From Candidatus Saccharimonadota bacterium (GTDB lineage Bacteria; Patescibacteriota; Saccharimonadia; Saccharimonadales; Saccharimonadaceae), in NCBI GenBank assembly GCA_001029695.1, contig CP011211.1, positions 390,001 to 422,000 on the forward strand: DNA of 32,000 bases. The letters run 5' to 3'. Positions 18,059-30,752 of the stretch are shown here, in pieces. The notes below the pieces were generated by a model, which was not told the DNA's origin, did no database searches, and was given only the letters and a program-made list of their open reading frames with translations. Position numbers and translations under genes: made by a program. Each line of letters opens with the position of its first letter. Positions within the stretch are counted from its first letter, which is position 1.

Positions 18059-18074
18059 GTCACACCGTTGAGGT

Positions 18075-18111
18075 CGTGACGCCTCGTAGCAACCAGCCAC
18101 GAGGCGTCACG
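18075..18111 (+). terminator. GC-rich 13-bp perfect hairpin after the membrane-protein gene, with no U-tract
   Basis: CGTGACGCCTCGT / ACGAGGCGTCACG with an 11-nt loop, starting 17 nt after the stop. It is followed by CTTCACGG, so a role as an intrinsic terminator is uncertain. Confidence 0.45.
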
Positions 18112-18285
18112 CTTCACGGTGCAGTAGTAAGTAGTATACAAAAAACAGGGAGCTTTTCTCCTGCTTGAGTTTCACTACTCGCAGTTAGACGAATAGCTCC
18201 CTGCTATTCCATGTTTTGTAATGATCTGATTTGACGAACTACTCGTACGTTAACAACTTAACCATCAGCATTCTTTAAAATAAAG

Positions 18286-18314
18286 TTTACTTTTATATAA
18301 ATTTGTTATATAAT
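18286..18314 (+). promoter_or_regulatory. sigma70-type promoter of the LPXTG surface-protein gene
   Basis: TTTACT (18286-18291), a 17-nt spacer, then TATAAT (18309-18314). Downstream SD AAAGGAG (18353-18359) lies 6 nt before ATG 18366. Confidence 0.6.
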
Positions 18315-18365
18315 CTAATTAAATCCAATAAATCTGGCTCGTGGAGTGCCAGAAAGGAGTTCGTA

Positions 18366-19820
18366 ATGAAAAATATCATCACCGCACTTAAGCGGTCACC
18401 AAAGCGCGCAGCTAGCCTTTTGGTTGTTGCGTTTGCCGTCATGATCCCAGCAGGTCTACTTGCATGGGGTCCAGCGGATCGTCCAACTTATACATTTGAG
18501 AAGCCTGCTGACCATGTCACATTCAACTCAATCACAAACAACCCAAGCCATGGAGACGAGCGTAATTTTGTTCAGATCCGTGACACAAGCACAAATGCAA
18601 AGTTTGGCGAAGAGGTTGCACTAACACCAGGCAAAGAATACGAAGTATATGTATTCTTCCACAATAACGCAGCAAGCAATCTAAATGATGCCGAGCACAA
18701 CTACAAAGGTGTTGCACAAAATGCAACTATGCGAGTACAAATGCCCGGATCTGTAAAAGCAGGCGAAAAAGCACGCTTTACAGGAATCGTCGGAGCAGAT
18801 AACGCGCAACCTAAAGAAGTATGGGACGAAGCATACGGCACAAGTGCAAGTAATGTAGCACTTCGTTATGTACCTGATTCTGCAACAATCTACAGCAATG
18901 GCGCCGTAGACGGACAGAAGCTACCTAGTACACTTCTTACAAGCGGTACAAAGCTTGGATTCAACGCGCTTGACGGTAAACTACCCGGCTGTAATGAGTT
19001 TGCAGGATGGGTAAAATATCGATTTGTTGTTGATCAACCAAACTTTAGTGTCGAAAAGACTGTTTCAGCAGTAGGAAAAAATGCATTTGCAAAATCAGTT
19101 AATGCAAAAGCAGGCGAGCAAGTTGAATACAAAATCCAGTACAAGAATACTGGCACTACTCAACAAAACGACGTCATGATCAAAGATACGCTTCCAAAAG
19201 GTATCTCATACGTTCCAGGTACAACGTATGCTGCAACTGGAAAAAGCAACGGCCAGTACGAAAAGATTAGCGATAACGTTACAACTAGCGGCGTCAACCT
19301 AGGTTCATTCGCACCAAATGCAAATGCATATGTTAAATTTACCGCAAAGGTAACCGACAACAACAGTCTTGAAAACTGTGGTACTAACACTCTCGTCAAC
19401 AAGGCAACTGCTCAGACAAATAACGGCAGCAAAGACGACACCGCTAACGTCGTCGTTAGCAACGACTGCGCACCAGGCAACATCAGCGTCTGTGACCTTT
19501 CTACTAACAAGATCGTTACTATTAACGAAAAAGACTTTGATAGTAAAAAGCACTCAAAGAACCTTGCTGATTGTGCAGAGAAGTGCCCGATCCCTGGAAA
19601 AGAACACCTTCCAAAGAATAGTCCTGACTGTGCATACTGCCCAGTTCCAGGCAAAGAGCACCTCTCAAAGGACAGCAGCGATTGTAACGAAACTCCAGTT
19701 GAGCTGCCACAAACCGGTATCTCAGGTGGTGCAACAATCGCCGGCATCGGCCTTGTAACTGCTGGCCTCGGCTACGCACTATCAAGCCGTCGTATCCGCG
19801 ACATGCTTATTGGACAATAG
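18366..19820 (+). CDS. LPXTG-anchored surface protein with a DUF11-type conserved repeat domain and a Cys-rich stalk
   Basis: Start at ATG 18366 with a strong SD. Signal-peptide-like segment KRAASLLVVAFAVMIPAGLLAWG. DUF11-like segment FSVEKTVSA...GEQVEYKIQYKNTGTTQQNDVMIKDTLPKGISYVPGT. C-terminal sorting signal LPQTG plus hydrophobic stretch plus RRIRD. Confidence 0.85.
   Translation: MKNIITALKRSPKRAASLLVVAFAVMIPAGLLAWGPADRPTYTFEKPADHVTFNSITNNPSHGDERNFVQIRDTSTNAKFGEEVALTPGKEYEVYVFFHNNAASNLNDAEHNYKGVAQNATMRVQMPGSVKAGEKARFTGIVGADNAQPKEVWDEAYGTSASNVALRYVPDSATIYSNGAVDGQKLPSTLLTSGTKLGFNALDGKLPGCNEFAGWVKYRFVVDQPNFSVEKTVSAVGKNAFAKSVNAKAGEQVEYKIQYKNTGTTQQNDVMIKDTLPKGISYVPGTTYAATGKSNGQYEKISDNVTTSGVNLGSFAPNANAYVKFTAKVTDNNSLENCGTNTLVNKATAQTNNGSKDDTANVVVSNDCAPGNISVCDLSTNKIVTINEKDFDSKKHSKNLADCAEKCPIPGKEHLPKNSPDCAYCPVPGKEHLSKDSSDCNETPVELPQTGISGGATIAGIGLVTAGLGYALSSRRIRDMLIGQ
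19584..19685 (+). repeat. two copies (54-nt period) of the motif CP(I/V)PGKEHL(P/S)K(N/D)S(P/S)DC in the stalk preceding LPQTG
   Basis: Copy 1 at 19584-19631 and copy 2 at 19638-19685. The peptide is conserved while many codons differ synonymously. Confidence 0.8.
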
Positions 19821-19869: not shown

Positions 19870-19899
19870 CAACCCCTGTAGATTTACAGGGGTTGTTTT
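19870..19899 (+). terminator. intrinsic terminator of the surface-protein gene
   Basis: CAACCCCTGTA-GATT-TACAGGGGTTG followed by TTTTG. Confidence 0.8.
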
Positions 19900-19901
19900 G
19901 C

Positions 19902-19907
19902 TATAAT
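19902..19907 (+). promoter_or_regulatory. -10 box TATAAT 9 nt upstream of ATG 19917 (leaderless or very short leader)
   Basis: Sequence gcTATAATagctatactATG, with no SD. Confidence 0.4.
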
Positions 19908-19916
19908 AGCTATACT

Positions 19917-20141
19917 ATGGCAAAGCAGAAAAAGAAACGAACTAAAGTATATAGCGGCGCAGATGCAGCAACTTCTCGTCCAACAATCACCCGTGTTCAA
20001 GCAGCGAATCGCAACAAAGTATCACAATGGTGGTTTGACCATAAGCGTATCGCTAAACCAGTCGCAATAGCGGCGATTATACTCCTCGTCATAATCATCG
20101 TTATCGTCGAGGTCGTTCGTCTGGCGACTGGCTCGGCGTAG
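19917..20141 (+). CDS. small basic membrane protein, 74 aa
   Basis: MAKQKKKRTKVYSG... followed by a TM segment (PVAIAAIILLVIIIVIVEVV). I chose ATG 19917 over the ORF-track TTG at 19893. The 3' end overlaps the convergent kinase gene by 41 nt. Confidence 0.5.
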   Translation: MAKQKKKRTKVYSGADAATSRPTITRVQAANRNKVSQWWFDHKRIAKPVAIAAIILLVIIIVIVEVVRLATGSA

Positions 20142-22326
20142 GAAAACTTGGCACTCTAAATCCAAAAGAACTGCCCGTCTCATCTTCAGCTTTAAATATC
20201 ATCGCACCCTTATGTGCGGTGATTACTTTTTTCGCGAGGAACAATCCTACGCCAGTACCATCAGGTCGCTGCTTGCGTGCGTTGGTTGCACGGAAGAATT
20301 TACTAAATAATCTCTCCTGCTCCTCAAGAGGTACGCCGATACCCTGATCCTTTACGAGGACGATCGCCTCATCATCGGTATATTCAAGCGAAACACTGAT
20401 CGTACTGCCACTGGGTGAATAATAAATAGCATTATCAATAAAGTTCATCACAACCTGTCCCACTTTTGACCGATCAATCTCCGTCTCGCGCCGAGCTACC
20501 GGCCCACTATAGACAAGTGTTTGCCCGTGGGCTTCGGCAAGCGCTCGAAGTGTATTTACCTCAGACCTCATCATTACATCCAAATCGACAGGATGAGCAT
20601 CGATGATAAACTTGCCCGTCTGTAGCCTTGATACCGATAAAAAGTCAGCGATAAGACGCACCATACGCTCACTACTTTCAAATGCCTCGCCAAGTAGATG
20701 GCGTTGTGTATCATTAATCTTTCCGGCATCCCCTTCCATCACCATACTCACGTAGCCTTTAATGCTCGTCAAAGGAGTACGAAGCTGATGTGATGCCATG
20801 CTTACAAATTCATCCTTCGCCTGGTCAAGCTTCTGAAGCTCTCGATTCGTAGCTCGTAGTCGAGTCGTTGCGACCGACACTTCATGCTTAAGCGTATCGT
20901 TAAATAATTTAATCTCCTCGTAGCGCAAGCTATTCTGAATCGCAAGCGCTAGCTCATCACTCATCATGCCGAGGAATCGAGTATCCTTCTCATCATAGCG
21001 TCGTCCACTTTTACGGTCACCGATAAAGATCGCTCCGATTCGCTCGTGCTGGACAAGCAGTTGCACAATCATAGCTGCATCAACATCCTCGATATACTGC
21101 TGCATATCATTGTCACCCATCGATGACACCCTATGTCCGTTCACCACTTGAGGCAGCTGATCGAGTAGATTTGCCACGACATCAAGCTGCATTGAACGCT
21201 GCTTGTGGGAAATCTTTCCAGGACCATGACCAAAATAACGAAGTTGACCATTATTGTCTGCCACATACACCGAGGTATATTCTGGCTCAAGCGCATCGTG
21301 AACAATATTGAGCGTCTTACGCACCAGGCGGCCAAGCTCGATCTCTTCAGACATGACATCTCCCACCTGCTGGAGTGTCTTGCTTGAGCTATAGTCATTC
21401 TGATAAAACAACCGATGAGTCAGCTGGTCAAAAAATCGCTTTACCGGTATATACGTCAGGGTCAACAAAAGCGCCACGACCACATACACCGCAGCATAGA
21501 CGTTATCAATGACCCGTCCGACAAAAAATAACTGTGTAATACCGAATATCGTCACGCTATAAATTACCGCAAGCGCACCAAGTAACAGTACATACGCCAT
21601 ACTCCTTGCGAGAGCTGCACGTAGATCAAACAACCCCTGCTGGATAATTGCATAAAATACTGAGATAACAAACAATACCGTAAATGGTGGTCCAGCCCAT
21701 ATCAGCTGATAGTTACCGAGTAGTGGGAGAAGCAGATTAAATAACGCCCCAAAAAATATAGCGACAACCACGCCTACGCACACCGTTCGCAGCTGATGTC
21801 GCAGATGAGCCTGATTGTGTCGCTTCGTCTGGCCATAGCTATACATAAACAACGACGTCGCGATAACCACATACACGACAAAGTATGCGACATAGATTCC
21901 ATATCCTAGAAGATTAAGTGTCGCCGTATTACCAGCCTGCCTATCAAGTGTCACCCCTTCGAGTAGCCCCCATGGAGCCACCGATACCACTATCGCTACA
22001 ATAAGACCAAGCAGAAGCATTGGCTGCACAAATGGCTTTATTTTTCGTCGATATGGAAAGCAAAGTGCAAGCTGTACAAGAAAATAAACGATCAAGGCGG
22101 CAATAACATAATACGAGTGAACAACGATACGCGCTATCGCCTCACTATACTGGAGTGAGAGGAACAAAGAGACGCCAACTCCCCAAAATCCTGCACATAT
22201 TGCAAGTAACGCGATCCACAGAGGTGATCGTTCCTGATGTTTCGAAGTAAGGACGACTCCGGCAAGTGCGAAGTTCGTCAATGCAATGCTAAACGACACC
22301 ACCAATGTTATCAATTGCAGATCCAT
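20101..22326 (-). CDS. sensor histidine kinase (multi-TM N-terminal sensor + GAF-like + HisKA + HATPase_c), paralog 1
   Basis: About 8 hydrophobic segments in the first ~300 aa. H-box SMASHQLRTPLTSIKGY, N-box MNFIDNAIYYS, G1 DQGIGVP, F-box/G2 FFRATNARKQRPDGTGVGLFLAKK. Confidence 0.9.
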   Translation of the reverse strand: MDLQLITLVVSFSIALTNFALAGVVLTSKHQERSPLWIALLAICAGFWGVGVSLFLSLQYSEAIARIVVHSYYVIAALIVYFLVQLALCFPYRRKIKPFVQPMLLLGLIVAIVVSVAPWGLLEGVTLDRQAGNTATLNLLGYGIYVAYFVVYVVIATSLFMYSYGQTKRHNQAHLRHQLRTVCVGVVVAIFFGALFNLLLPLLGNYQLIWAGPPFTVLFVISVFYAIIQQGLFDLRAALARSMAYVLLLGALAVIYSVTIFGITQLFFVGRVIDNVYAAVYVVVALLLTLTYIPVKRFFDQLTHRLFYQNDYSSSKTLQQVGDVMSEEIELGRLVRKTLNIVHDALEPEYTSVYVADNNGQLRYFGHGPGKISHKQRSMQLDVVANLLDQLPQVVNGHRVSSMGDNDMQQYIEDVDAAMIVQLLVQHERIGAIFIGDRKSGRRYDEKDTRFLGMMSDELALAIQNSLRYEEIKLFNDTLKHEVSVATTRLRATNRELQKLDQAKDEFVSMASHQLRTPLTSIKGYVSMVMEGDAGKINDTQRHLLGEAFESSERMVRLIADFLSVSRLQTGKFIIDAHPVDLDVMMRSEVNTLRALAEAHGQTLVYSGPVARRETEIDRSKVGQVVMNFIDNAIYYSPSGSTISVSLEYTDDEAIVLVKDQGIGVPLEEQERLFSKFFRATNARKQRPDGTGVGLFLAKKVITAHKGAMIFKAEDETGSSFGFRVPSFPTPSQSPDERPRR

Positions 22327-22360
22327 TCTTTTCCAGTATACTGCTTTTGCTTTGATTCAT

Positions 22361-23338
22361 CTATGCACGAATGCAATAAACTGCGTATACATTGTCATCC
22401 GGCAAAAGAATCGTTAGTTGGTTTGGCCCGAACCCAGCTTTCTCAATAAGATCTTTAACCTGATCAGATGTTCTTGGCAACACCCCCGGCCAACCAAGCC
22501 CCCTCTTATGAACCTGAAGCTGCGGGTGATCAGCATGCATATTTGAAAACACAAACGAACCGTCTTTTGGCATCGTTTCACGTATCTTTCTCAGCATCTC
22601 CACCGCCTCGCCCTCGTCAAGGTACTCAAAAAGCCCCATAGCCTCGATGATCTGCGGCTGAGCATCTACGACAAGTGCCTCGAGCACGCCTGGTCGCTTA
22701 AGGTCATGTTCGATCAAATGCACGCTGCTCTTTGCTATACCATACTCATGCGCAAGTTCATCTGCAAGCGCCAACGCGTTTTTGTCGATGTCACATAAAT
22801 AAAAATTCTTCTCACCATCAAACAGTCGCGCAGCATCAAACGTCGGCTGCCCACTGCCACATGCAATGCTCATCCAGCGAAGCTTTGCCTCGTCTTTATA
22901 GATACCCTGGAGGTACCATGACATCGCATAGGCACGCGATCGTAGACCTATAGCGTCACTCGAATGACGAAATAGATTACGGGTTATATAGTCAATCTTT
23001 TTTCCACTACGAAGCTTCTTTCGATCTGGGTTGTGCACATGAAATGTAGCAAACCCTCCAGGCATATACGCCGCCCATGCTCGCAGTGCTGGTGGCACAT
23101 AGATGATCTTGCGAATATGATTTTTGGGATGCTCAAAATCAAGATGGGGGCGCTTACGCAAGTACGCCTCCATAGCGCGAGTAAATAACGCAAACGTTTT
23201 TCGCTCCAGTAGATGTCGTTTTGTACTAAATCGGTCACTTGCATGAAGACGAATAGTCATGACTTCACCATTCAATGTTTCATCTAAAACTCGCAAGCTA
23301 AATTGATCACTCGTAAAATCTGCTGGCTTTTTGCTCAT
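22361..23338 (-). CDS. class I SAM-dependent methyltransferase with a ~150-aa N-terminal extension
   Basis: Motif I-like WMSIACGSGQPT, an acidic motif II residue in YLCDID, and post-I/III features (IIEAMGLFEYL). There is a 10-nt gap after the upstream kinase stop, with AAAGG 5 nt before the ATG. Confidence 0.75.
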   Translation of the reverse strand: MSKKPADFTSDQFSLRVLDETLNGEVMTIRLHASDRFSTKRHLLERKTFALFTRAMEAYLRKRPHLDFEHPKNHIRKIIYVPPALRAWAAYMPGGFATFHVHNPDRKKLRSGKKIDYITRNLFRHSSDAIGLRSRAYAMSWYLQGIYKDEAKLRWMSIACGSGQPTFDAARLFDGEKNFYLCDIDKNALALADELAHEYGIAKSSVHLIEHDLKRPGVLEALVVDAQPQIIEAMGLFEYLDEGEAVEMLRKIRETMPKDGSFVFSNMHADHPQLQVHKRGLGWPGVLPRTSDQVKDLIEKAGFGPNQLTILLPDDNVYAVYCIRA

Positions 23339-23348
23339 GAGAACCTTT

Positions 23349-25529
23349 CTATGCTTCGTTTATCTGTGTACGCTTTTTTGAAGTATCGACAGGTATCCTA
23401 AACCCGAACTTACTCCCCTTACCTTCAGTCGATGAAAAGATCATCTTACCACCATGTGCGGTGATTACTTTTTTCGCAAGGAACAATCCTACGCCAGTGC
23501 CGTCAGGTCGCTGTTTGCGTGCATTGGTTGCACGGAAAAACTTATGGAAAAGCTTCGCCTGCTCTTCGACTGGCACGCCAATTCCCGTATCGGCAACCAC
23601 AAATGCGAGTTCATCATCGATCTGTTCGAGACTCACTGTGATTGTCGTCTCTGGACGAGAGTAGTAGATAGCATTATCGATAAAGTTCATGATCACCTGG
23701 CGAACCTTTGCCTCATCAAGTTCGATAATTGGCAGGGTCTTCTTTGGTACCTTCACGCTTAACTTGATGTTGTGCGCTTCAGCGATGAGTCGTAGACTAT
23801 TCGTTTCCTGCTCAACAACACTTCCAAGATCTGTCGGGTGGTACTCAACAAGAAATTTCCCTGTTTGCAGGCGCGATACGTTCAGGAAATCACTAATAAG
23901 TCGCACCATACGCTCGCTACTGTTAAACGCTTCCTTCAATACAGTCTCTTGCTGTGGAGTGACGTTCCCCATGTCACCCTCGAGCACCATACTTAGATAG
24001 CCTTTTATACTTGTAAGCGGAGTACGTAACTGGTGTGACGCCATGCTAATGAACTCATCTTTCACTTCATCGATATGACGAAGCTGTGCGTTCGATGAAC
24101 GCAATTCTTTTGTCGCAACATCAATTCGCTGCTGCAGGGTTGCGTTGATTTCTTTAACCTCTTGGACAGATAGCGCGTTTTGAATAGCAACAATTAACTC
24201 ATCTGAAAGAGTTTCAAGCACCCTCACATCTCGGCTTACATAGCCTGCTCCCTTATGTTCACCTAAACAGAGATAGCCCAGCACGCCACCGCTATGGCGT
24301 AAAGGTAAAATGATAGCCAACCTATAAGATGTCATCATCCGTTTAATCGCCGTATCAATTTCTGGTTCATCACCAAGAATGACGGCGTCACCCCTCTCCT
24401 CTACATATACCTCAAGGCGTCGAGCATCCTCTATCGCAAGATACGTTCTGTTTTTAGTTCCAGATGACAGATAATGGCCAGCGGAATGGTATACAAAAAA
24501 ATATCCCTGCTCGGACTTTAGCGTACTCGCTAGCTTAACTGCAGCCCTCTCCAGGAGACCTCTAAGATCTGTCGTAGAAGCGAGTAGCCTACTCATCTCT
24601 GCGTAGAGTACATCCGTCTTGTAGTTATCTCTGTAGAAAAACTTATTTGTAATCTTATCAAAGAAAGATTTCACTGGCTGGAAAAAGAAAGCAAGAAGCA
24701 AAGCGGCAAAAGTATTTATAGGGCTTACGGCAGTCTCTCCGCTACCAGTAAATAAAATCCTAGACGCAGCATATGCTATCCCGTAGTAAAGCACCGAGAG
24801 AGTGGCTAAAACCCCTATATAGACAAGACTCCTGACAACGACAAAACGAAGGTCAAATAACCTATGGCGAATAACGCTATAGTAAATTCCAATCACTAAG
24901 AGAAGTACGGGAGAAACCCCAAACTCTGTAAATGCGAAGATACCCGTTAGCGACGGTAGGATGAATTGCATCGTTACAACCAATGGCAAGGACACCATCA
25001 GACTCAGTGCAATGACTTGAAGCTGGTTAAGCGCTGCGCCCTTCAGTTTACGCAAACCAATAATTAAAGTATAGAAGACTATCCCCATCATCATAAGTAA
25101 AGCAGCCCCATACAACAGAATAAGAGGACCGAAGATGACAGCGTATACATTTCCTTGCTGCTCTATACCTGCGACAGTCAAAGGAGTTGCAGCCAATAAA
25201 GCAATAATCCACAAGAAAGGTGTCATAAACTTTGTAAACTTTCGACTCAGTGACACACTCGCCAATTCGGAAACAAAATTCATCACCAGTATCATTGCTC
25301 CAAAAGCAGATGCGAATACTAAATAATTTGCTACCAGTGCAACACCGACAGACAGGTCAACGTTATTTGCTATGTGGTTAGAAGGGATCCATACCGCTAC
25401 CATAATAGCCAAAACTACAAATAATCTGTTCACATACTGCTTATAGCCACCCCTCAGGGAGACTAAAACTGCAAGCACCGTAAGAAGACCGACAATAATT
25501 ACATCAATAATCGCGTAGACACTCAGCAT
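23349..25529 (-). CDS. sensor histidine kinase (multi-TM N-terminal sensor + GAF-like + HisKA + HATPase_c), paralog 2
   Basis: Same architecture as 20101-22326. H-box SMASHQLRTPLTSIKGY, N-box MNFIDNAIYYS, G1 DTGIGVP, and the identical FFRATNARKQRPDGTGVGLFLAKKVITAH. Confidence 0.9.
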   Translation of the reverse strand: MLSVYAIIDVIIVGLLTVLAVLVSLRGGYKQYVNRLFVVLAIMVAVWIPSNHIANNVDLSVGVALVANYLVFASAFGAMILVMNFVSELASVSLSRKFTKFMTPFLWIIALLAATPLTVAGIEQQGNVYAVIFGPLILLYGAALLMMMGIVFYTLIIGLRKLKGAALNQLQVIALSLMVSLPLVVTMQFILPSLTGIFAFTEFGVSPVLLLVIGIYYSVIRHRLFDLRFVVVRSLVYIGVLATLSVLYYGIAYAASRILFTGSGETAVSPINTFAALLLAFFFQPVKSFFDKITNKFFYRDNYKTDVLYAEMSRLLASTTDLRGLLERAAVKLASTLKSEQGYFFVYHSAGHYLSSGTKNRTYLAIEDARRLEVYVEERGDAVILGDEPEIDTAIKRMMTSYRLAIILPLRHSGGVLGYLCLGEHKGAGYVSRDVRVLETLSDELIVAIQNALSVQEVKEINATLQQRIDVATKELRSSNAQLRHIDEVKDEFISMASHQLRTPLTSIKGYLSMVLEGDMGNVTPQQETVLKEAFNSSERMVRLISDFLNVSRLQTGKFLVEYHPTDLGSVVEQETNSLRLIAEAHNIKLSVKVPKKTLPIIELDEAKVRQVIMNFIDNAIYYSRPETTITVSLEQIDDELAFVVADTGIGVPVEEQAKLFHKFFRATNARKQRPDGTGVGLFLAKKVITAHGGKMIFSSTEGKGSKFGFRIPVDTSKKRTQINEA

Positions 25530-25537
25530 ACATATGC

Positions 25538-25543
25538 ATTATA
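25538..25543 (-). promoter_or_regulatory. -10 box TATAAT 8 nt upstream of the kinase-2 ATG (leaderless architecture)
   Basis: The minus strand reads gcgcTATAATgcatatgtATG. Confidence 0.5.
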
Positions 25544-25580
25544 GCGCTAAATCACTTTTTTGCCACAGCATTTGTTAAGT

Positions 25581-26516
25581 CTAGGCTGATCTACTATGCG
25601 CGTCTGTGCGCCTTTTTCTTGCATCATCCTGATAGTCAGCTTCTGGATTAAGGCCAAGCTTGGTTCGCGCAAAAGCCGCAGTAGCACCTAAGTAGTATGA
25701 CGCTCGCGGATATCGTATAACTCCCGATTTATTCGTATACGCATCCATAAATCGATATCTTGGAGCCCATGTTGGCTCCTTGCGATTATTCCCAATGCCG
25801 TACGTTAAGTGAAGAAATGCTTCTGTACTCCCCAATCCACTAGCCATATCAACCCCTTCGCTGATCGTCGGCAAAGGCGCACCACCTTGCGTAGCCAAAA
25901 GAGTTCTATAGTCACCATAAGGTGGAATATAAGGAACGCATCGACTAAGATCTACCTTCATTTCTGCAACCTCATCGAGTGGCATATCTTTTGGTATGCC
26001 CATAATCTTCTCAAAATCTCCACCCCTAAGAGATGTAGCGATACCCGCAAAACCAATATTCATCACAAGCAGTCCTGGAGTTTCCTGCTTCAGGGCCGTT
26101 CGAGCAAGCAACGTACCGATCTCAGGCTTCAAAAGCTCTGACTCATCTAGATATAAGTCTGCGCCATATAGAAATTCTTCAACGTTTTCCGAAATGACAC
26201 CATCATCATAAATCGTTACTTTTGGTGAAGCAGGTAGCGCCTCAACCATCTCCTTAAAAACCTCAGCTTTATTGCGACCTACGTTGGGTGTCGTCGCGGC
26301 AAGTACGCGGTTTGAATTCTCAGGCTCAAACGCCTCAGGATCCGCTACGCGGATCTCACCTACGCCCTTCATTGCTAGCTTATAGCCAAGTTGAAACCCG
26401 TCCCCGCCAACACCGGCGATTGCAACAGTAGAATTTATTAAAGCATCTTGCTCTGCCTCATTCCAAAAACCATAATTTCTAGAGAAGGCCGGATGATTTA
26501 TAGTATTTTTACGCAT
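25581..26516 (-). CDS. ThiF/MoeB/HesA-family (E1-like) adenylyltransferase-fold protein
   Basis: FSRNYGFWNEAEQDALINSTVAIAGVGGDGFQLGYKLAMKGVGEIRVADPEAFEPENSNR is a Rossmann GxGGxG motif in the ThiF arrangement. GRNKAEV matches the conserved Arg/Lys ATP-site region. SD GAGGAG lies upstream. Confidence 0.75.
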   Translation of the reverse strand: MRKNTINHPAFSRNYGFWNEAEQDALINSTVAIAGVGGDGFQLGYKLAMKGVGEIRVADPEAFEPENSNRVLAATTPNVGRNKAEVFKEMVEALPASPKVTIYDDGVISENVEEFLYGADLYLDESELLKPEIGTLLARTALKQETPGLLVMNIGFAGIATSLRGGDFEKIMGIPKDMPLDEVAEMKVDLSRCVPYIPPYGDYRTLLATQGGAPLPTISEGVDMASGLGSTEAFLHLTYGIGNNRKEPTWAPRYRFMDAYTNKSGVIRYPRASYYLGATAAFARTKLGLNPEADYQDDARKRRTDAHSRSA

Positions 26517-26589
26517 AATTAGTGATCAGCTCCTCTAGTAATATACAACATAGAAAATATATCCATTCTCTATAGATTCAACAGAAAGA

Positions 26590-27342
26590 CTAGTGCCTTA
26601 TAGCATCTCCCCAGTACTGAAAAGTATTACTATTGGCTTTCATACCAGATAGTACATCAGGGTCTAACCTATTACTTAGCTCGTTCGTATCTATCATGAT
26701 GCCAAGATTATCGGTCTTATACTTTGGTATATACCGTGGATCTGCAACAACGCTAAACGGCACGCCATTTCTTTCGAGTTGCTCTTGTAGTTTTGTTTCC
26801 ACTACACCATAAGCTGGGCCTAAATCGTTTGCAATAACATGTGAAACGCCACGTGCAAATAATCTTGTTCTTAGATTATTTGCGTGAAAACGGTCATCGT
26901 GTCTCACTATTAGACGTGACACTTCTACTGCCTGACTAGGCGCCGGATTCTCGTCAAACTCATCTTTGAAAAATTCTTCAATTGGTAGCTTGGTCTCTTT
27001 ATCGTGTGTGTTTTTTTCAATAAGACGCATACACCCGACAACCGCAACGCGTGCTAATTGGTTCTCTAGTGCAACGATATGCACTGATCGCTCGTCGTCA
27101 ATATCAGTCTCGGTGCCGTCAACGCGCCTAGCATCTTCATCTAATATTTGCCTCTGGTCAATGTATACATTGGCTCGCAGTCGTAGATATGACTGAAAGA
27201 GTGCATCTTGGTCTAATGATGGATCGGTGTTGATACCAATAACTCCGATTGCGAATCTCTGATCAGGGTGGTGATCAAATATATCCGTCTCAACAGAAGG
27301 GGTAATATTGTGTGTCTTTATTGGATCGTAATTCATTACCAT
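26590..27342 (-). CDS. GNAT-fold N-acyltransferase of the autoinducer-synthase-like group (LuxI / N-acyl amino acid synthase-like)
   Basis: Motif series YLRLRANVY, GTETDIDDERSVHIV, VVGCMRLI, KLPIEEFF and AVEVSRLIV parallels the conserved blocks of LuxI-type and N-acyl amino acid synthase families. I set the start at ATG 27342, because the ORF-track GTG at 27366 sits inside the promoter -10 (GTGTATAAT). Confidence 0.65.
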   Translation of the reverse strand: MVMNYDPIKTHNITPSVETDIFDHHPDQRFAIGVIGINTDPSLDQDALFQSYLRLRANVYIDQRQILDEDARRVDGTETDIDDERSVHIVALENQLARVAVVGCMRLIEKNTHDKETKLPIEEFFKDEFDENPAPSQAVEVSRLIVRHDDRFHANNLRTRLFARGVSHVIANDLGPAYGVVETKLQEQLERNGVPFSVVADPRYIPKYKTDNLGIMIDTNELSNRLDPDVLSGMKANSNTFQYWGDAIRH

Positions 27343-27357
27343 AGGTTTATAGCTTTG

Positions 27358-27385
27358 ATTATACACTTTATTAAAAAAAAGTCAA
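27358..27385 (-). promoter_or_regulatory. near-consensus promoter of the acyltransferase/ThiF-like genes
   Basis: On the minus strand, TTGACT (27385-27380), a 16-nt spacer, then TATAAT (27363-27358) preceded by TG. Confidence 0.65.
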
Positions 27386-27419
27386 TACCAACATAACCTG
27401 CTAGCTCTTACTGGGAACA

Positions 27420-27428
27420 TGCTACAAT
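27420..27428 (+). promoter_or_regulatory. extended -10 promoter TGcTACAAT 6 nt upstream of the response-regulator ATG (leaderless architecture)
   Basis: Sequence aTGcTACAATatacctATG, with no SD. Confidence 0.5.
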
Positions 27429-27434
27429 ATACCT

Positions 27435-27806
27435 ATGACCAAAATTGCAATCATCGAAGACGACTCAGTCATTAACCAAATGTACCGTATGAAGTTTGAA
27501 GCCGATGGCTTCGACGTTCAGGTGGCAGACAATGGCAAGAGCGGTATCGAGATGGCAAAAACCTTCAAACCAGACATTATCTTGCTTGACCTTCAGATGC
27601 CAGAAATGACTGGAGACGAGGCGCTCGTACATATTCGCGGTAGTGACTGGGGTAAACAAATACCCGTCATCATCCTCACAAACCTTGGTGCAGAAGAATC
27701 ACCAAAGATCCTCAAGCAGCTTGATATACATAGCTATATAGTCAAAGCTGAACTTACCCCGAGCCAAGTTGTAGGACGAGTCAAAGAAGCACTCCACCTC
27801 AATTAA
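27435..27806 (+). CDS. single-domain (receiver-only, CheY-like) response regulator
   Basis: Acidic pocket EDD (aa 8-10), phospho-acceptor Asp in ILLDLQMP, Thr in IILTN, Lys in YIVKA. At 123 aa there is no output domain. Confidence 0.9.
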   Translation: MTKIAIIEDDSVINQMYRMKFEADGFDVQVADNGKSGIEMAKTFKPDIILLDLQMPEMTGDEALVHIRGSDWGKQIPVIILTNLGAEESPKILKQLDIHSYIVKAELTPSQVVGRVKEALHLN

Positions 27807-27819
27807 ATCTTTAAGTAAG

Positions 27820-28629
27820 CTAGTCTTTAGCTGTAGCGGTGGCTGCTGAGATAACGTTGTCAAACAGCGCCGTGACAGTGAGCGGACCGACTCCACCTTT
27901 GAGTGGTGTAATCGTAAGATCATCTCTCGTGCGAACATCGTCGGCCACGTCGCCGACAACTCTGCCATGCTCGGCTGCAGTCCCAGCATCTATAACAACC
28001 GCACCGTCTTTCAACTGTTCTGAAGTGATAAGACCTGGTACGCCAGTTGCCGTCACGATCACATCATACTCCTTTAGTTGCGCTGCAAGGTCTTTCGATG
28101 AACTATCGAATATCGTTGATTCATAGCCGCTTTTTTGCCATAGCACTGCAAGCGGAGCACCTACGAGGCGGCCATTTCCGACAATTGCGATCTTCTTATC
28201 TTTGAGGACAATATTGTACCCAGCTGCCAGCCAATTAATCGCGAGCGCCGTAGCAGGATCAAATATATGATCTACTCCGAGACCGTCAACGTCCTTTTGT
28301 GGCGCAACCGCGTCGACAGCAGCCTGTGTCTGCGTAGTGTCAGCGAGCGGGAGTTGAATGATAATGCCATGCACTGACTCGTCGCCGTTGAGCGCCTCAA
28401 TCGTCGCCATAAGCTCTGCACTCGACACTTTATGAACGGCTACATCGACAAGAATATCCGCACCATATTGTTTTTTCATACGAACATACGTATCAATCAC
28501 AGGGTCATCTGTCGTCTGAACTACCGCAAGCACAGGAAAAACACGCTTTGCCTGCCTCAGCGCACGTACCTGTTTTGCTTGGCGCTCTTTTATAAAGCCC
28601 GCCAACTCATTTCCATCGAGTAATTTCAT
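27820..28629 (-). CDS. folD: bifunctional methylenetetrahydrofolate dehydrogenase / methenyltetrahydrofolate cyclohydrolase
   Basis: MKLLDGNELAGFIKERQ..., YVRMKKQ, GIIIQLPL, VGNGRLVGAPLA and TPLKGGVGPLTVTALF. Confidence 0.93.
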   Translation of the reverse strand: MKLLDGNELAGFIKERQAKQVRALRQAKRVFPVLAVVQTTDDPVIDTYVRMKKQYGADILVDVAVHKVSSAELMATIEALNGDESVHGIIIQLPLADTTQTQAAVDAVAPQKDVDGLGVDHIFDPATALAINWLAAGYNIVLKDKKIAIVGNGRLVGAPLAVLWQKSGYESTIFDSSSKDLAAQLKEYDVIVTATGVPGLITSEQLKDGAVVIDAGTAAEHGRVVGDVADDVRTRDDLTITPLKGGVGPLTVTALFDNVISAATATAKD

Positions 28630-29263: not shown

Positions 29264-29305
29264 CCAAGAAAAAAGACTTATCTAACGATAAGTCTTTTTT
29301 CTTGG
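29264..29305. terminator. bidirectional terminator: 19-bp perfect hairpin shared by the convergent DUF5684-like gene and tRNA-Lys
   Basis: CCAAGAAAAAAGACTTATC-TAAC-GATAAGTCTTTTTTCTTGG. A/T tracts flank it on both strands. The right arm includes the tRNA CCA end. Confidence 0.8.
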
Positions 29306-29379
29306 AGGGCCAGGAGGGACTTGAACCCTCGACACCCTGCTTAAGAGGCAGGTGCTCTAACCAGCTGAGCTACTGGCCC
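29303..29379 (-). tRNA. tRNA-Lys (anticodon CUU), genomically encoded CCA
   Basis: Hand-folded cloverleaf: acceptor GGGCCAG/CTGGCCC, D-arm GCTC-AGCTGGTTA-GAGC, anticodon stem CCTGC/GCAGG with loop CTCTTAA, T-arm GAGGG-TTCAAGT-CCCTC, then T plus CCA. Total 77 nt. Confidence 0.93.
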
Positions 29380-29518
29380 GTATTGCAAAATAAATTGTAC
29401 TCTATTACTCGAGAAAAGGCAAGAGAAATCTCCCCCATTCCAGCAAAAGATTCATCATATTCTGTATATTCAATCGGCCCATACGATGCTATACTTAACC
29501 GTAAGAAGTTTGTTGTAT

Positions 29519-29992
29519 ATGAAGAATACTCACCCATCATCTGGTTTTACCGTTGTTGAGGTATTGGTTACCCTGGTGATCATATCGCTATTTATGGGGC
29601 TCTTTTTTCAGACCTACATGGCTATGGAATCACAACGTCTCGCAGTGCAGAAAACCGTCTTTGCTAGTAATATCGCTTATGCCAACTTGCGTAAATTCTC
29701 TGAACGCCCTGATTCAACAAAGCTCAGCTGCACCAACGACATGAACCTCGCTAGCAATCCAACCGCACCGGGTATCGAGATTGGCGGAAATAACACCAGC
29801 CCGAACACATTTGGGTTTGTTGGCGAAAATCTCACCACTTCACTTGGAACTGACGCTACTCAGCAGGTTCTTATCTTTGCACCAAATGGCTGTACGAGAT
29901 TTGCAGACATGCCGCTAAAAATAGTGTCTATAGTTAGATACGGACCCGCATCAAATCAGGAAGAGATCGCTCATGTATCATATGTCAAATAA
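29519..29992 (+). CDS. type IV pilin-like / pseudopilin protein (prepilin N-terminal cleavage-methylation motif)
   Basis: MKNTHPSSG|FTVVEVLVTLVIISLF has Gly-Phe at the cleavage site, Glu at +5 and a hydrophobic helix. I chose ATG 29519 rather than the ORF-track start at 29486. Confidence 0.8.
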   Translation: MKNTHPSSGFTVVEVLVTLVIISLFMGLFFQTYMAMESQRLAVQKTVFASNIAYANLRKFSERPDSTKLSCTNDMNLASNPTAPGIEIGGNNTSPNTFGFVGENLTTSLGTDATQQVLIFAPNGCTRFADMPLKIVSIVRYGPASNQEEIAHVSYVK

Positions 29993-30752
29993 AAATCGAT
30001 CCCAGGGTTTCACTATCGTCGAGCTGATTGTCGTAATATCAGTACTATCGATACTTATCGGCCTCATAGCGACAACGCTCCTAAATTTCTACCTATCAAA
30101 TATAGCCACGATCAACCGTACGACGCAGGCAAATGACGTCGCAAGCACGCTACAATCGATAGAAAAAAATGTATCGCTTGCGAGTAACTTCCTCAGCAAG
30201 ACATCTAGTTCGGCACTTGCAACACCACTTGGTCCAGAAAACTCTGCGATGCCTTGGATCTTCAAGACAGGTGAGCCGAACTACAACGTATTGATTGTCC
30301 AGAACTACGCAACAGATGGTACATCGAGCGACACAGCTCGGAAACTCATCTATTCATCTCCTGATTGTAAGTCGGATCCTGTCAAGAATACTCTGATCTA
30401 CTTCGTTGACACTTCTAGTACATTATATCGCCGCACTATCAGCGGACCCCCCTCTGTCTGCGGCGGCGCAATATCTCAAAAAACAACTTGCGCTCCAACA
30501 GCGACCTCATCACCACTATGTATCGGTGTAGACGCTGTCCTTTCCAGGAACGTATCAAAATTTCAGATACACTATTTTGCCAATAGCTCAGACCAGACAC
30601 CCGTGGACCCATACTCACAATCAGAGGTAACAGCCGCAGACACCATAAGAAACGCCAAAGCAATAAACATAACACTAGAGACATCCGAAAACATAAACGG
30701 TAAACTGAATAAGTACGCAAGTACTTTGCGGATTACAAGGTTGAACGAATGA
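29973..30752 (+). CDS. type IV pilin-like / minor pilin protein
   Basis: MYHMSNKNRSQG|FTIVELIVVISVLSILIGL is a prepilin motif with Glu +5. SD-like GGAAGAG lies 7 nt upstream. It overlaps the previous gene by 20 nt, and its stop overlaps the next start (ATGA at 30749-30752). Confidence 0.8.
   Translation: MYHMSNKNRSQGFTIVELIVVISVLSILIGLIATTLLNFYLSNIATINRTTQANDVASTLQSIEKNVSLASNFLSKTSSSALATPLGPENSAMPWIFKTGEPNYNVLIVQNYATDGTSSDTARKLIYSSPDCKSDPVKNTLIYFVDTSSTLYRRTISGPPSVCGGAISQKTTCAPTATSSPLCIGVDAVLSRNVSKFQIHYFANSSDQTPVDPYSQSEVTAADTIRNAKAINITLETSENINGKLNKYASTLRITRLNE

Follow-up and report, generated by a model that had tools for sequence, protein, structure and literature searches.

In the LuxM/LuxN and CqsA/CqsS systems, the synthase gene is located beside the gene of a membrane histidine-kinase receptor. 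The same neighborhood is known for the PhcB methyltransferase, whose gene adjoins that of the membrane histidine-kinase receptor PhcS (PMC8578825). The locus presented here has been described in part: syntenic group 13 in Table S4 of Bernard et al. 2020 (PMC7567580) lists its GNAT, HBH77738.1, together with the kinases HBH77736.1 and HBH77734.1 and is classed as a candidate complete quorum-sensing system; the same table contains LuxI homologues directly beside sensor kinases in around ten other CPR phyla.

The present locus derives from the tiny genome of Candidatus Saccharibacteria GW2011_GWC2_44_17 and was analysed within a window of 32,000 nucleotides. The sequence-only reading knew of no described system with this gene combination, which has to be narrowed: the LuxI homologue and both kinases are already in PMC7567580, and the other parts were not found there. 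The main text and a part of the supplement of that work contain no ThiF link (the term "ThiF" has zero occurrences), no methyltransferase-kinase cassette, no shared receiver, and no modularity. The locus resembles PhcB/PhcS, LuxM/LuxN, and CqsA/CqsS in placing a putative synthase beside a receptor-type kinase. The reading preferred below, given about an even chance, is that of interchangeable signal-synthase/receptor-kinase cassettes of the quorum-sensing type converging on one CheY-like regulator.

Two tandem cassettes in one slot

The minus strand carries, in the order of transcription, a GNAT gene (26590-27342; 250 aa; AKM80325.1 / HBH77738.1), a gene of a ThiF/E1-like adenylating enzyme (25581-26516; 311 aa), the kinase HK2 (23349-25529; 726 aa), a class I SAM-dependent methyltransferase (22361-23338; 325 aa), and the kinase HK1 (20101-22326; 741 aa), separated by gaps of 73, 51, 10, and 34 nt. 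A receiver-only CheY-like response regulator (27435-27806, plus strand) is divergent. The ORF check and Pfam place all six ORFs of the sequence-only reading exactly here, with the domains it had assigned, and agree with its 10 nt from the HK2 stop to the methyltransferase start and its 92 nt between the starts of the receiver and the GNAT.

The slot occupied by these genes can be delimited by synteny. For each cassette type, the gene of FolD (5,10-methylene-THF dehydrogenase/cyclohydrolase; 27820-28629, minus strand) adjoins the receiver in the majority of loci; it is the conserved left border and lies outside the system. The right border is formed by the gene of an LPQTG-anchored CLIPPER-domain surface protein (18303-19820, plus strand) and a small 82-aa membrane ORF (19893-20141, plus strand), which has one hydrophobic segment in a hydropathy scan and overlaps convergently with the 3′ end of HK1. 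In most group-A loci of cassette types A and B, both follow the last kinase, and the CLIPPER gene does so in the X+B loci too.

In 27/27 distinct related loci, with GNAT identities as low as 33% and two kinds of flanking context, the GNAT, the ThiF-like gene, and a kinase are contiguous, and the methyltransferase-kinase pair is kept in 8/8 contexts, with an HK1-type kinase directly 3′ of the methyltransferase, although such counts are inflated by the strong overall synteny among Saccharibacteria. The genes are thus co-conserved in relatives, but not as one unit. The methyltransferase is missing from all 27 of the other GNAT-ThiF-kinase loci and has its own HK1-type partner, so that the window contains two tandem cassettes. 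At the same slot, the methyltransferase-kinase pair is the sole cassette in four genomes (L041, L042, L045, L046), and in three others (L040, L043, L044) a third enzyme type replaces the GNAT and ThiF-like genes ahead of the kinase, preceded in L043 by an AdoMet decarboxylase. The earlier proposal of a self-contained produce-and-sense module therefore stands as the best explanation in its produce-and-sense part; the single self-contained pathway does not, since the methyltransferase and HK1 form a separate pair.

Enzymes, sensor kinases, and the shared receiver

The GNAT passes the Pfam models Autoind_synth (38.3 bits, cut-off 24) and Acetyltransf_5 (PF13444; 35.6 bits, cut-off 22.4), and scores under the cut-off for FeeM (23.7 bits against 27). 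In a PDB search with its predicted structure (AF2 pLDDT 90.6), the best 12 matches are all AHL synthases, among them BjaI, RpaI, and LasI, followed by FeeM; the best viral match is a phage AHL synthetase. Residues R56, E78, D83, R106, E140, and R143, as well as the motif set R...Y, E-x-D-x-x-D, R-L, and E-x-S-R, are invariant among 55 diverse members, and R56, Y60, R106, and the E-x-S-R motif match those of TofI in an alignment. The assignment of the 250-aa protein to the autoinducer-synthase-like GNAT group is thus borne out by HMM and predicted structure, and the protein is a LuxI/FeeM-branch acyltransferase, the putative signal synthase of the first cassette. The position aligned to the LGW tryptophan of TofI, a residue that contributes to the SAM pocket in LuxI-type enzymes, varies between I, M, F, and L, which makes the use of SAM, and thus a true AHL product, doubtful. 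To our knowledge, Saccharibacteria lack fatty-acid synthesis, and the acyl donor of the GNAT is therefore a point against the signal-synthase reading.

The ThiF-like protein matches PF00899 with 71.2 bits; the nearest NCBIfam model, PRK08223, remains under its cut-off. Its predicted structure (AF2 pLDDT 91.3) has a Rossmann fold from around residue 28, and the Foldseek matches include ThiF, AclA, MccB, PaaA, and MoeB, with a TM-score of 0.77 to ThiF versus about 0.52 to MccB. Family invariants are GVGGDG, D59, R70, K83, and D124; the protein has no CxxC motif, and the family alignment contains no strictly conserved Cys. The ThiF-like gene directly follows the GNAT in 27/27 related loci and overlaps with it in L001, L003, and L005, which argues for an obligate partner of the GNAT. 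We know of no LuxI-type synthase that requires a ThiF partner, and the GNAT/ThiF chemistry is therefore guesswork. The methyltransferase exceeds the Pfam cut-offs for Methyltransf_25 (29.8 bits) and Methyltransf_20 (26.0 bits), its catalytic domain covering residues ~142-304 after an N-terminal part of about 140 aa with no assigned domain. At E <= 1e-5, its homologues number over 170, and those among the matches listed are nearly full length and apparently belong to Saccharimonadales wherever a source is named.

HK1 and HK2 each combine a 7TM-type membrane region with GAF, HisKA, and HATPase_c domains (Pfam), and the H-box of HK2 reads SHQLRTPL. The 7TM character claimed for both was compared with the profile HisKA_7TM (PF16927). 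The N-terminus of HK1 covers positions 3-222 of its 224, but at 26.4 bits it falls just below the cut-off of 28.6; HK2 itself has no match to this profile, but its orthologue from L006, 60% identical, passes with 41.7 bits. The profile is matched by 18/33 members of the kinase family, and a crude hydropathy scan suggests around nine hydrophobic segments per kinase.

The kinases are paralogous, as proposed, with 38% identity overall, distributed very unevenly: 63.8% in the catalytic core versus 19.6% in the TM region and 20.1% in the GAF. A similar pattern separates the kinase classes (TM 19.7%, GAF 22.8%, core 58.6%), and core identity inside one class is 61-62%. In simple neighbour-joining trees, which carry no support values, all eight methyltransferase-linked kinases, HK1 included, form one clade by their sensor regions, whereas cassette types are intermixed in the core tree; the sensor phylogeny tracks the upstream enzyme. 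HK2 orthologues, 40-60% identical, directly follow ThiF in all related loci. The GNAT-ThiF cassette has HK2 as its ancestral receptor-type kinase; in the methyltransferase cassette, the receptor-type kinase is HK1.

The receiver (Response_reg, 74.8 bits; no output domain in Pfam) possesses the residues E8/D9/D10, D52, T82, and K104. A single receiver-only gene accompanies every cassette type, its closest copy being 55-85% identical across complete loci, and it is the shared candidate phospho-acceptor for both cassettes.

The proposed mechanism has its basis in the observed gene content, domains and folds, in pairs that strictly co-occur, in cassettes that replace one another at one slot, and in sensors that diverge far more than the cores. 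Two independent sets of enzyme(s) and cognate kinase, in tandem between FolD/receiver and the small ORF/surface-protein gene, would each produce their own small, probably lipid-like molecule, presumably secreted. In the first cassette, the GNAT may form an N-acylated amine, which HK2 would sense after activation or cyclisation of its carboxylate by the ThiF-like enzyme; in the second, the methyltransferase may yield a methylated (ester-type) compound for HK1. Each kinase would sense its own molecule through its 7TM/GAF region, the part that differs so strongly between the two, and both, almost alike in their cores, would phosphorylate the single conserved receiver, which may work on its target through protein-protein contact. 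If true, the circuit is of the quorum-sensing type and multi-channel: many inputs feed one output, and the channels vary by lineage. The window, as noted earlier from the sequence, shows neither a DNA-binding output nor an exporter or precursor gene, and the absent output and exporter count against a quorum-sensing-type circuit.

Alternative functions of the enzyme-kinase pairs

Enzyme and sensor would also be expected to co-vary if the enzymes had the kinases or the membrane as their targets. Envelope or lipid homeostasis has a low but appreciable probability: the products of the GNAT (with ThiF) and the methyltransferase would be new or remodelled membrane lipids made from host-derived building blocks, e.g., N-acyl amino-acid lipids similar to ornithine lipids, and methylated versions of these, and what the 7TM kinases sense would be the composition of the membrane, not a diffusible signal. 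The GNAT also passes the model of PF13444, a family to which the lyso-ornithine-lipid synthase OlsB belongs. The sensors consist of large, polytopic membrane domains, and the exporter-free locus has neighbors encoding surface proteins and pilins. However, the closest folds of the GNAT are AHL synthases rather than lipid-synthesis GNATs, and a housekeeping role in lipids sits uneasily with enzyme types that can replace one another at one slot, and with a sensor identity of ~20% next to cores near 60%.

Detection of foreign molecules is unlikely. Saccharibacteria are obligate epibionts reliant on host metabolites, and the kinases could detect compounds of the host bacterium. Acylation, adenylation, or methylation by the neighboring enzymes would serve to detoxify, quench, or convert these compounds, with no self-signal made. 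The enzyme-sensor pairing agrees with this reading just as well, and the lineage-variable cassette content could reflect different hosts; yet synthase activity is what LuxI-fold enzymes are known for, the GNAT catalytic residues are strongly conserved, and the order of enzyme first and kinase second is that of known synthase-receptor operons (PMC8578825).

Modification of the signaling proteins themselves is decidedly improbable. The kinase or receiver would then be the target of acylation, adenylation, or methylation, and the enzymes would be adaptation or regulatory partners in the manner of CheR, the methylator of chemoreceptors. Close adjacency, the co-variation of enzyme type with sensor region, and the classical action of E1-like enzymes on protein C-termini agree with it, but the locus encodes no small substrate protein, ubiquitin-like or otherwise, the ThiF-like protein lacks Zn and catalytic-Cys motifs, the GNAT fold branch is that of small-molecule N-acyltransferases, and the NCBIfam search gave no CheR-type match for the methyltransferase. 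The microcin C-like peptide-nucleotide or antibiotic pathway raised earlier (ThiF as MccB, methyltransferase-fold as MccD, GNAT as MccE), for which MccB and PaaA among the structural matches and the presence of all three enzyme classes in the window would speak, is largely refuted and very improbable, because the methyltransferase is part of the other cassette, no N-terminal peptide-clamp (peptide-binding) domain is present in the ThiF-like protein, which is structurally nearer ThiF, the GNAT is LuxI-like, unlike RimL/MccE, and the ORF list of the window holds no immunity gene besides the missing precursor and exporter; the resemblance is a coincidence of gene order in this lineage.

Promoter sites of the array

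The near-consensus promoter reported upstream of the GNAT (TTGACT-16-TATAAT; 27358-27385, minus strand) is confirmed as an 11/12 match to the sigma-70 type and the best in the region, and is the putative driver of the GNAT-ThiF-HK2-methyltransferase-HK1 array; the total number of promoter-like sites, 15 against 14.4 expected, is about what chance predicts. Upstream of the GNAT, 14/24 related loci have a match of 11/12 or better, and in six of these it is 12/12. The −10 element ends 15 nt from the GNAT ATG, which implies a very short leader. An alternative longer GNAT start, GTG at 27366, would fall within the promoter, and the public annotation also gives 250 aa. A second promoter-like site (GTGGCA-17-TATAAT; 25538-25566, minus strand; 10/12), just upstream of HK2, is a possible internal promoter for this kinase.

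Two enzyme-plus-kinase cassettes in one chromosomal slot

The locus of Candidatus Saccharibacteria GW2011_GWC2_44_17 consists of two cassettes, each joining an enzyme set to its own histidine kinase, and of one divergently transcribed receiver. The first cassette contains the genes of a GNAT acyltransferase (26590-27342, minus strand), a ThiF-like enzyme (25581-26516, minus strand) and the kinase HK2 (23349-25529, minus strand). The second is composed of a methyltransferase gene (22361-23338, minus strand) and the kinase HK1 (20101-22326, minus strand), and the receiver gene is located at 27435-27806 on the plus strand. Neighbouring genes of the array lie 73, 51, 10 and 34 nt apart, and the region between the GNAT gene and the receiver measures 92 nt. 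An ORF check of the window confirmed the positions of the six genes proposed in the sequence-only reading, and Pfam searches confirmed the domain content proposed for all six proteins. The GNAT is identical to AKM80325.1 and HBH77738.1, which come from Candidatus Saccharibacteria (the genome GW2011_GWC2_44_17 and one TPA assembly).

The window proteins were mapped on 14 distinct genome or assembly loci and on 13 metagenome loci long enough to be judged. The GNAT, ThiF-like and HK2-type kinase genes are contiguous and co-oriented in all 27, which span deep relatives (33% identity for the GNAT, about 40% for the ThiF-like protein) and two distinct flanking contexts; in three loci the GNAT and ThiF-like genes overlap by 1-14 nt. 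The methyltransferase and second kinase were found in none of these 27 GNAT-ThiF-HK2 loci. A genome scan for relatives gave 11 loci, all from Saccharibacteria, and a further metagenome search gave 23 with the same architecture wherever it is readable, the most distant being the numbered loci L032-L037. The sole exception in gene order is a metagenome fragment (L039:1486-3017), where the ThiF-like gene precedes the GNAT gene, with a gap of about 400 nt between them.

The second cassette has its own pattern of linkage. In 8/8 contexts the methyltransferase gene is directly followed by that of an HK1-type kinase, the two lying 4-80 nt apart or overlapping slightly. The neighbourhoods of the methyltransferase-kinase pair and of the GNAT-ThiF-kinase set argue that the locus is formed by two units and not by one pathway. 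The earlier interpretation is therefore supported in part: the produce-and-sense element remains the best explanation, whereas the single self-contained module gives way to two cassettes, the methyltransferase belonging with HK1. Likewise, the co-conservation expected of the genes holds for the GNAT, ThiF-like and HK2 genes but fails for the methyltransferase with the GNAT and ThiF-like genes.

The cassettes occupy a chromosomal slot of constant order: FolD, the divergent receiver, the cassettes, an ORF of about 75 aa and a CLIPPER surface protein. Within the slot the cassettes are interchangeable. The methyltransferase-kinase pair is the sole cassette in L041, L042, L045 and L046. In L040, L043 and L044 it is preceded by a cassette with an unrelated protein of 259-274 aa before the first kinase, here called type X, which stands in for the GNAT and ThiF-like enzymes. 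In the window and its close relatives, GNAT-ThiF-HK2 is followed by methyltransferase-HK1.

The X proteins of L040:5038-5817 and L044:5002-5826 have no Pfam match, are 36% identical to each other and precede an HK2-like kinase. LuxI-like motifs can be seen in them by eye (R..F/Y.....W, E/D.D.YD, S.RL, WDLTRF). Their assignment as divergent LuxI-like enzymes was rejected, with hhalign probabilities of 0.75-2.6%, no Pfam match and only noise in a PDB profile search. The corresponding stretch of L043 (4557-5710) encodes a different 270-aa protein (weak Acetyltransf_5, E = 0.086), preceded by an AdoMet decarboxylase (43.5 bits). In L005:6678-9901 and L044:2131-4331, an ABC ATPase and a membrane protein of about 480 aa are inserted between the receiver and the first enzyme gene, on the strand of the receiver, and the L005 stretch additionally carries a DDAH/arginine-deiminase-like gene. 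These two loci hold different cassette types, and the ABC pair, absent from the window, could be an exporter.

A near-consensus promoter had been proposed at 27385-27358, upstream of the GNAT gene. The site (TTGACT-16-TATAAT) is the top match of the region in a consensus scan (11/12), in which the overall number of promoter-like sites equals the chance expectation. It is taken as real because 14 of 24 related loci also have a match of at least 11/12 upstream of the GNAT gene, and in six the match is perfect. A further promoter-like site, a possible internal promoter, precedes HK2 (25566-25538). The -10 elements end 15 nt before the GNAT start and 8 nt before the HK2 start (window 27342-27363 and 25529-25543). 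At such short distances a Shine-Dalgarno sequence would hardly fit, if at all, and the GNAT and HK2 transcripts may therefore lack a leader or have only a very short one.

Enzymes of the cassettes

The GNAT (250 aa) falls inside the autoinducer-synthase-like group by HMM and by predicted structure, as had been anticipated. It matches Pfam Autoind_synth (PF00765) with 38.3 bits against a gathering threshold of 24, over model positions 9-167 of 183, and also passes Acetyltransf_5; many relatives bear the same precomputed Autoind_synth match. The FeeM family HMM (PF21926) is not passed (23.7 bits, cut-off 27). The top NCBIfam match is TIGR03694, an uncharacterised PEP-CTERM/exosortase-associated acyltransferase (E = 3e-15), which is not passed either: 56.3 bits were obtained against 111.95, over the N-terminal half of the model (positions 14-124 of 241), and the PEP-CTERM/exosortase context of that family is absent at the window locus. 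An alignment-based AF2 model (pLDDT 90.6, pTM 0.88) retrieved AHL synthases at Foldseek PDB ranks 1-12 (E = 4e-10 to 7e-7, TM to target 0.62-0.77). The order was BjaI and RpaI, which are CoA-dependent AHL synthases, then LasI, TofI, MesI and EsaI, with FeeM (2g0b) at rank 13. The best match in a viral-library structure search was a phage AHL synthetase. The sequence link to the PDB is weak, with E = 0.003 for the profile against TofI.

In an exhaustive profile search the GNAT family proved sizeable: E <= 1e-30 was reached by 179 representatives and E <= 1e-3 by 860. Six residues (R56, E78, D83, R106, E140 and R143) are invariant among 55 diverse members, and three others (Y60, D80 and S142) are almost invariant. 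These residues form the motifs R...Y, E-x-D-x-x-D (E78/D80/D83), R-L and E-x-S-R (E140/S142/R143); in the sequence alignment, R56, Y60, R106 and E-x-S-R coincide with the equivalents in TofI. LuxI-type synthases conserve an N-terminal Arg, Phe and Trp of the SAM pocket together with an acidic/basic catalytic cluster, and the tryptophan of their LGW motif helps to shape that pocket. The position aligned with the LGW tryptophan of TofI is variable in the GNAT family (I, M, F or L), which leaves SAM use uncertain. The enzyme is thus AHL-synthase-like by HMM and fold, and a bona fide AHL product is uncertain for the same reason.

Compared with the LuxI-type synthases BjaI, RpaI, LasI, TofI and EsaI, the window GNAT has the same GNAT sub-fold and keeps the R...aromatic, E-x-D-x-x-D, R-L and E-x-S-R motifs, but it is only 16-23% identical and has about 45 extra N-terminal residues. 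LuxI-type enzymes go with a LuxR-type receptor, whereas the GNAT is always accompanied by a ThiF-like enzyme and a membrane histidine kinase; no LuxR-type gene was found in the region, and a 7TM-GAF histidine kinase is the neighbour in every locus instead. We know of no LuxI-type synthase that requires a ThiF-like enzyme. FeeM and the N-acyl amino acid synthases belong to a fold branch common with the GNAT, and an N-acyl amino acid, having a free carboxylate, would be a substrate for adenylation by the ThiF-like enzyme. A search for GNAT-ThiF fusions found no second Pfam domain in the long GNAT family members P0274, P0276, P0285 and P0299, and the GNAT did not match the NCBIfam models PRK14852 and PRK14851.

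The ThiF-like protein (311 aa) matches PF00899 with 71.2 bits and satisfies the family HMM. Its identity to relatives is 55-66%, against 35-45% for the GNAT. The residues of the nucleotide site are invariant in 28 orthologues, namely the GVGGDG loop (G35/G37/G38/D39/G40), D59, R70, K83 and D124. The protein contains no CxxC motif, its sole cysteine falls outside the alignment columns with at least 90% conservation, and the locus holds no small ubiquitin-like ORF of the ThiS/MoaD type. The features of ThiF/MoeB sulfur-carrier enzymes (Zn-binding CxxC pairs, catalytic cysteine, Gly-Gly partner) are thus missing, and the scores for the NCBIfam equivalog models of these enzymes are far under the cut-offs. 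The closest NCBIfam models are PRK08223, PRK14851 and PRK14852, all uncharacterised, and PRK08223 is not passed (106.7 vs 266 bits). An AF2 model (pLDDT 91.3) gave Foldseek matches to AclA, E. coli ThiF (TM 0.77), MccB (about 0.52), PaaA and MoeB; with regard to the substrate, these are generic E1-like matches only. A literature search on AclA, the top match, found nothing.

By its predicted structure, the ThiF-like protein is a generic E1-like adenylating enzyme without the N-terminal peptide clamp of MccB. The Rossmann-type ATP site is kept in common with the E1-like enzymes that do not transfer sulfur (MccB, PaaA, TcdA). The protein differs from them in having neither the clamp nor the Zn-binding cysteine motifs, and nothing points to a peptide, a ThiS/MoaD-like protein or a tRNA as its substrate. 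In a distant relative (L033:7789-9699), the ThiF-like part continues into a fused C-terminal domain of about 330 aa, which scores 126.8 bits against the Acg/Rv3131 FMN-oxidoreductase (nitroreductase-like) family, under the cut-off of 199. The architecture of this fusion resembles the Rv1355c family (ThiF plus nitroreductase) and the PRK14851 and PRK14852 families, and it may point to some versions of cassette 1 including a redox step.

The methyltransferase (325 aa) is a class I enzyme by Pfam (Methyltransf_25 and Methyltransf_20) with no specific match in NCBIfam. More than 170 homologues were found at E <= 1e-5; among the matches listed they are nearly full length, and those with a named source come from Saccharibacteria/Saccharimonadales.

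Sensor kinases and the common receiver

Both kinases have GAF, HisKA and HATPase_c domains above the Pfam cut-offs and share the H-box SHQLRTPL. Their earlier designation as 7TM kinases holds at the family level, since 18 of 33 kinase N-termini match PF16927 (HisKA_7TM), but less well for the window proteins: HK1 lies just under the cut-off (26.4 bits, cut-off 28.6) with the whole model covered, and HK2 has no match. The model is passed by the orthologues in L006 (60% identical to HK2; 41.7 bits) and L041 (36.2 bits). A crude hydropathy scan indicates about nine hydrophobic segments per kinase. The sensor regions match neither the LuxN nor the CqsS family in NCBIfam. A link to PrsK/PEP-CTERM kinases was also considered and was dropped, as the sensor regions have no relevant NCBIfam match.

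The two kinases are 38% identical overall, and this identity is unevenly distributed. Between HK1 and HK2 it is 19.6% in the TM region, 20.1% in the GAF domain and 63.8% in the catalytic core. The same pattern is observed between the two kinase classes among 30 kinases (19.7%, 22.8% and 58.6%, respectively), while inside one class the values are 35-38% for the TM region, 35-37% for GAF and 61-62% for the core. The trees, both built by neighbour-joining and without support values, repeat this difference. In the tree of the sensor half, 8/8 methyltransferase-linked kinases form one clade, the ThiF-linked kinases are placed in other clades and the X-linked ones form their own subclade; in the tree of the catalytic core the cassette types are mixed. 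The pairing of enzyme type with sensor type, and the divergence of sensors over a common core, are direct observations. The simplest reading is that HK1 and HK2 would receive different inputs and share a common output.

The receiver (123 aa) matches Response_reg above the cut-off and has nothing else attached. Its Asp pocket is intact, with E8/D9/D10, D52, T82 and K104 all present. HK1, HK2 and the receiver carry the classical two-component features, and phosphotransfer from the kinases to the receiver is proposed. A receiver is found alongside every cassette type, the closest copy being 55-85% identical across complete loci, and one to three receiver-only genes are located divergently upstream in nearly all GNAT loci. 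In the deeper loci L009-L013, L015 and L033-L037, the single receiver-only gene upstream of the GNAT gene gives way to a tandem of two or three, with 38-63% identity to the receiver of the window. Such tandem receivers suggest a branched or relay-type output.

Possible function, precedents and surroundings of the slot

The arrangement of a synthase with a membrane kinase as its receptor is of a known kind. An example is the phc locus of Ralstonia, where the methyltransferase PhcB makes methyl 3-hydroxymyristate and the histidine kinase PhcS senses the product; the SAM-dependent methyltransferase gene is directly upstream of the membrane sensor kinase, with response regulator(s) nearby (PMC8578825). 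The likeness of cassette 2 to PhcB/PhcS lies in gene arrangement and enzyme class only, and the sensor (HisKA_7TM plus GAF), the receiver-only output regulator, the phylum and the reduced genome are different. Another example is provided by Vibrio, in which LuxM/LuxN and CqsA/CqsS place a synthase gene beside a multi-pass kinase, and LuxN, LuxQ and CqsS converge on one relay. The Saccharibacteria slot resembles this architecture in that several differing sensor kinases accompany one common receiver. Unlike those of Vibrio, however, the window kinases are not hybrid, no LuxU/LuxO-type relay or DNA-binding output is located nearby, and no sequence relationship was detected.

The mechanism favoured here would comprise three steps. 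First, each enzyme set would make a small, probably amphipathic molecule. Second, the 7TM/GAF module of its own kinase would detect that molecule. Third, both kinases would signal to the single CheY-like receiver, which would act on some further target. In the order preferred for cassette 1, the GNAT may N-acylate an amine or amino acid, after which the ThiF-like enzyme would adenylate a carboxylate of the product for cyclisation or coupling; in the alternative order, ThiF would supply the activated acyl donor, the organism not being known to have fatty-acid synthesis. The product could be, for example, an ATP-activated, cyclised N-acyl amino acid (an N-acyl lactone or lactam reached by a SAM-independent route) or an otherwise derivatised form. 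The cassettes might then constitute dialects that vary by lineage in a pherotype-like manner. In its full form, a multi-channel system of chemical communication with swappable cassettes of synthase and 7TM receptor kinase, at least three enzyme types that can occupy the one slot, one CheY-like regulator, a new GNAT+ThiF signal class and lineage dialects, this proposal is tentative and rather unlikely to hold in every part.

Other explanations, judged jointly to have somewhat less than an even chance, are that the cassettes remodel membrane lipids and carry sensors of membrane state, that they sense and modify host compounds, or that the enzymes act on the signalling proteins. A microcin C-like pathway, the competing hypothesis of the sequence-only reading, is largely excluded: co-conservation with the GNAT and ThiF-like genes does not extend to the methyltransferase, the ThiF-like AF2 model has no peptide clamp and a TM to MccB of about 0.52, no precursor ORF or exporter was seen in the window, and the GNAT comes from the wrong branch.

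Saccharibacteria and other members of the candidate phyla radiation (CPR) have genomes of less than 1 Mb and an attached lifestyle on host bacteria, and how they sense partners and density is little understood. The present lineage devotes about 7.7 kb to two units of enzyme and sensor, and in its relatives this site carries either of them or a third type, which argues that such units matter to the cell and are adaptive. Should the products be signals, the slot would offer a genetically compact and fairly tractable system for the study of multi-input signalling in the CPR. New signal chemistry would also be indicated, since the dependence of a LuxI-like acyltransferase on an E1-like adenylating enzyme has no known precedent. 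The synthases, receptor kinases and receiver would then serve as handles on epibiont-host associations, those in the oral microbiome among them. Cassettes that control membrane lipids or handle host compounds instead would still define envelope or host monitoring in these organisms.

Among the literature found, only Bernard et al. 2020 (mSystems, PMC7567580), who screened CPR/DPANN genomes for quorum-sensing homologues, touches the locus. In Table S4, syntenic group 13 contains HBH77738.1 (LuxI homologue, gene 811) with the kinases HBH77736.1 (809) and HBH77734.1 (807), and group 12 contains the near-identical OGL33891/93/95; genes 810 (ThiF) and 808 (methyltransferase) do not appear there. 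The text counts such loci among "18 homologs of LuxI" next to a sensory kinase, "candidates for complete QS systems", and the word "ThiF" does not occur in the main text or in the supplementary text searched. The adjacency of LuxI homologue and kinase was thus already published, and the novelty of the gene combination is limited to the ThiF partnership, the methyltransferase-kinase cassette, the common receiver and the modularity of the slot, which are undescribed as far as was found. Literature searches for later work on the locus, for a combination of ThiF, autoinducer synthase and kinase, and for functional genetics of the locus in Saccharibacteria gave nothing relevant. The same table places LuxI homologues beside sensor kinases in about ten other CPR phyla, and this recurrence backs the GNAT-kinase link with evidence that does not depend on synteny within Saccharibacteria.

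Genes for surface proteins and pilins lie around the slot. Two large surface-type proteins adjoin the locus at 16349-19820: the first (569 aa) has a long Pro/Thr-rich region with local GC of up to 58%, and the second (505 aa) has a CLIPPER domain and a terminal LPQTG sortase signal and is syntenic with the slot in most relatives. On the other side, the stretch 29303-30752 holds a tRNA-Lys (CTT; 29303-29379) and, after it, two genes whose products have N-termini like those of type IV pilins (GFTVVE, GFTIVE), and pilin-like (N_methyl) genes flank the slot in relatives as well. Type IV pili are a plausible target of the CheY-like receiver. A few kb upstream of the slot in L040 (775-2642), a SMODS nucleotidyltransferase and a SLATT gene form a CBASS-like defence pair, which is unrelated to the cassettes.
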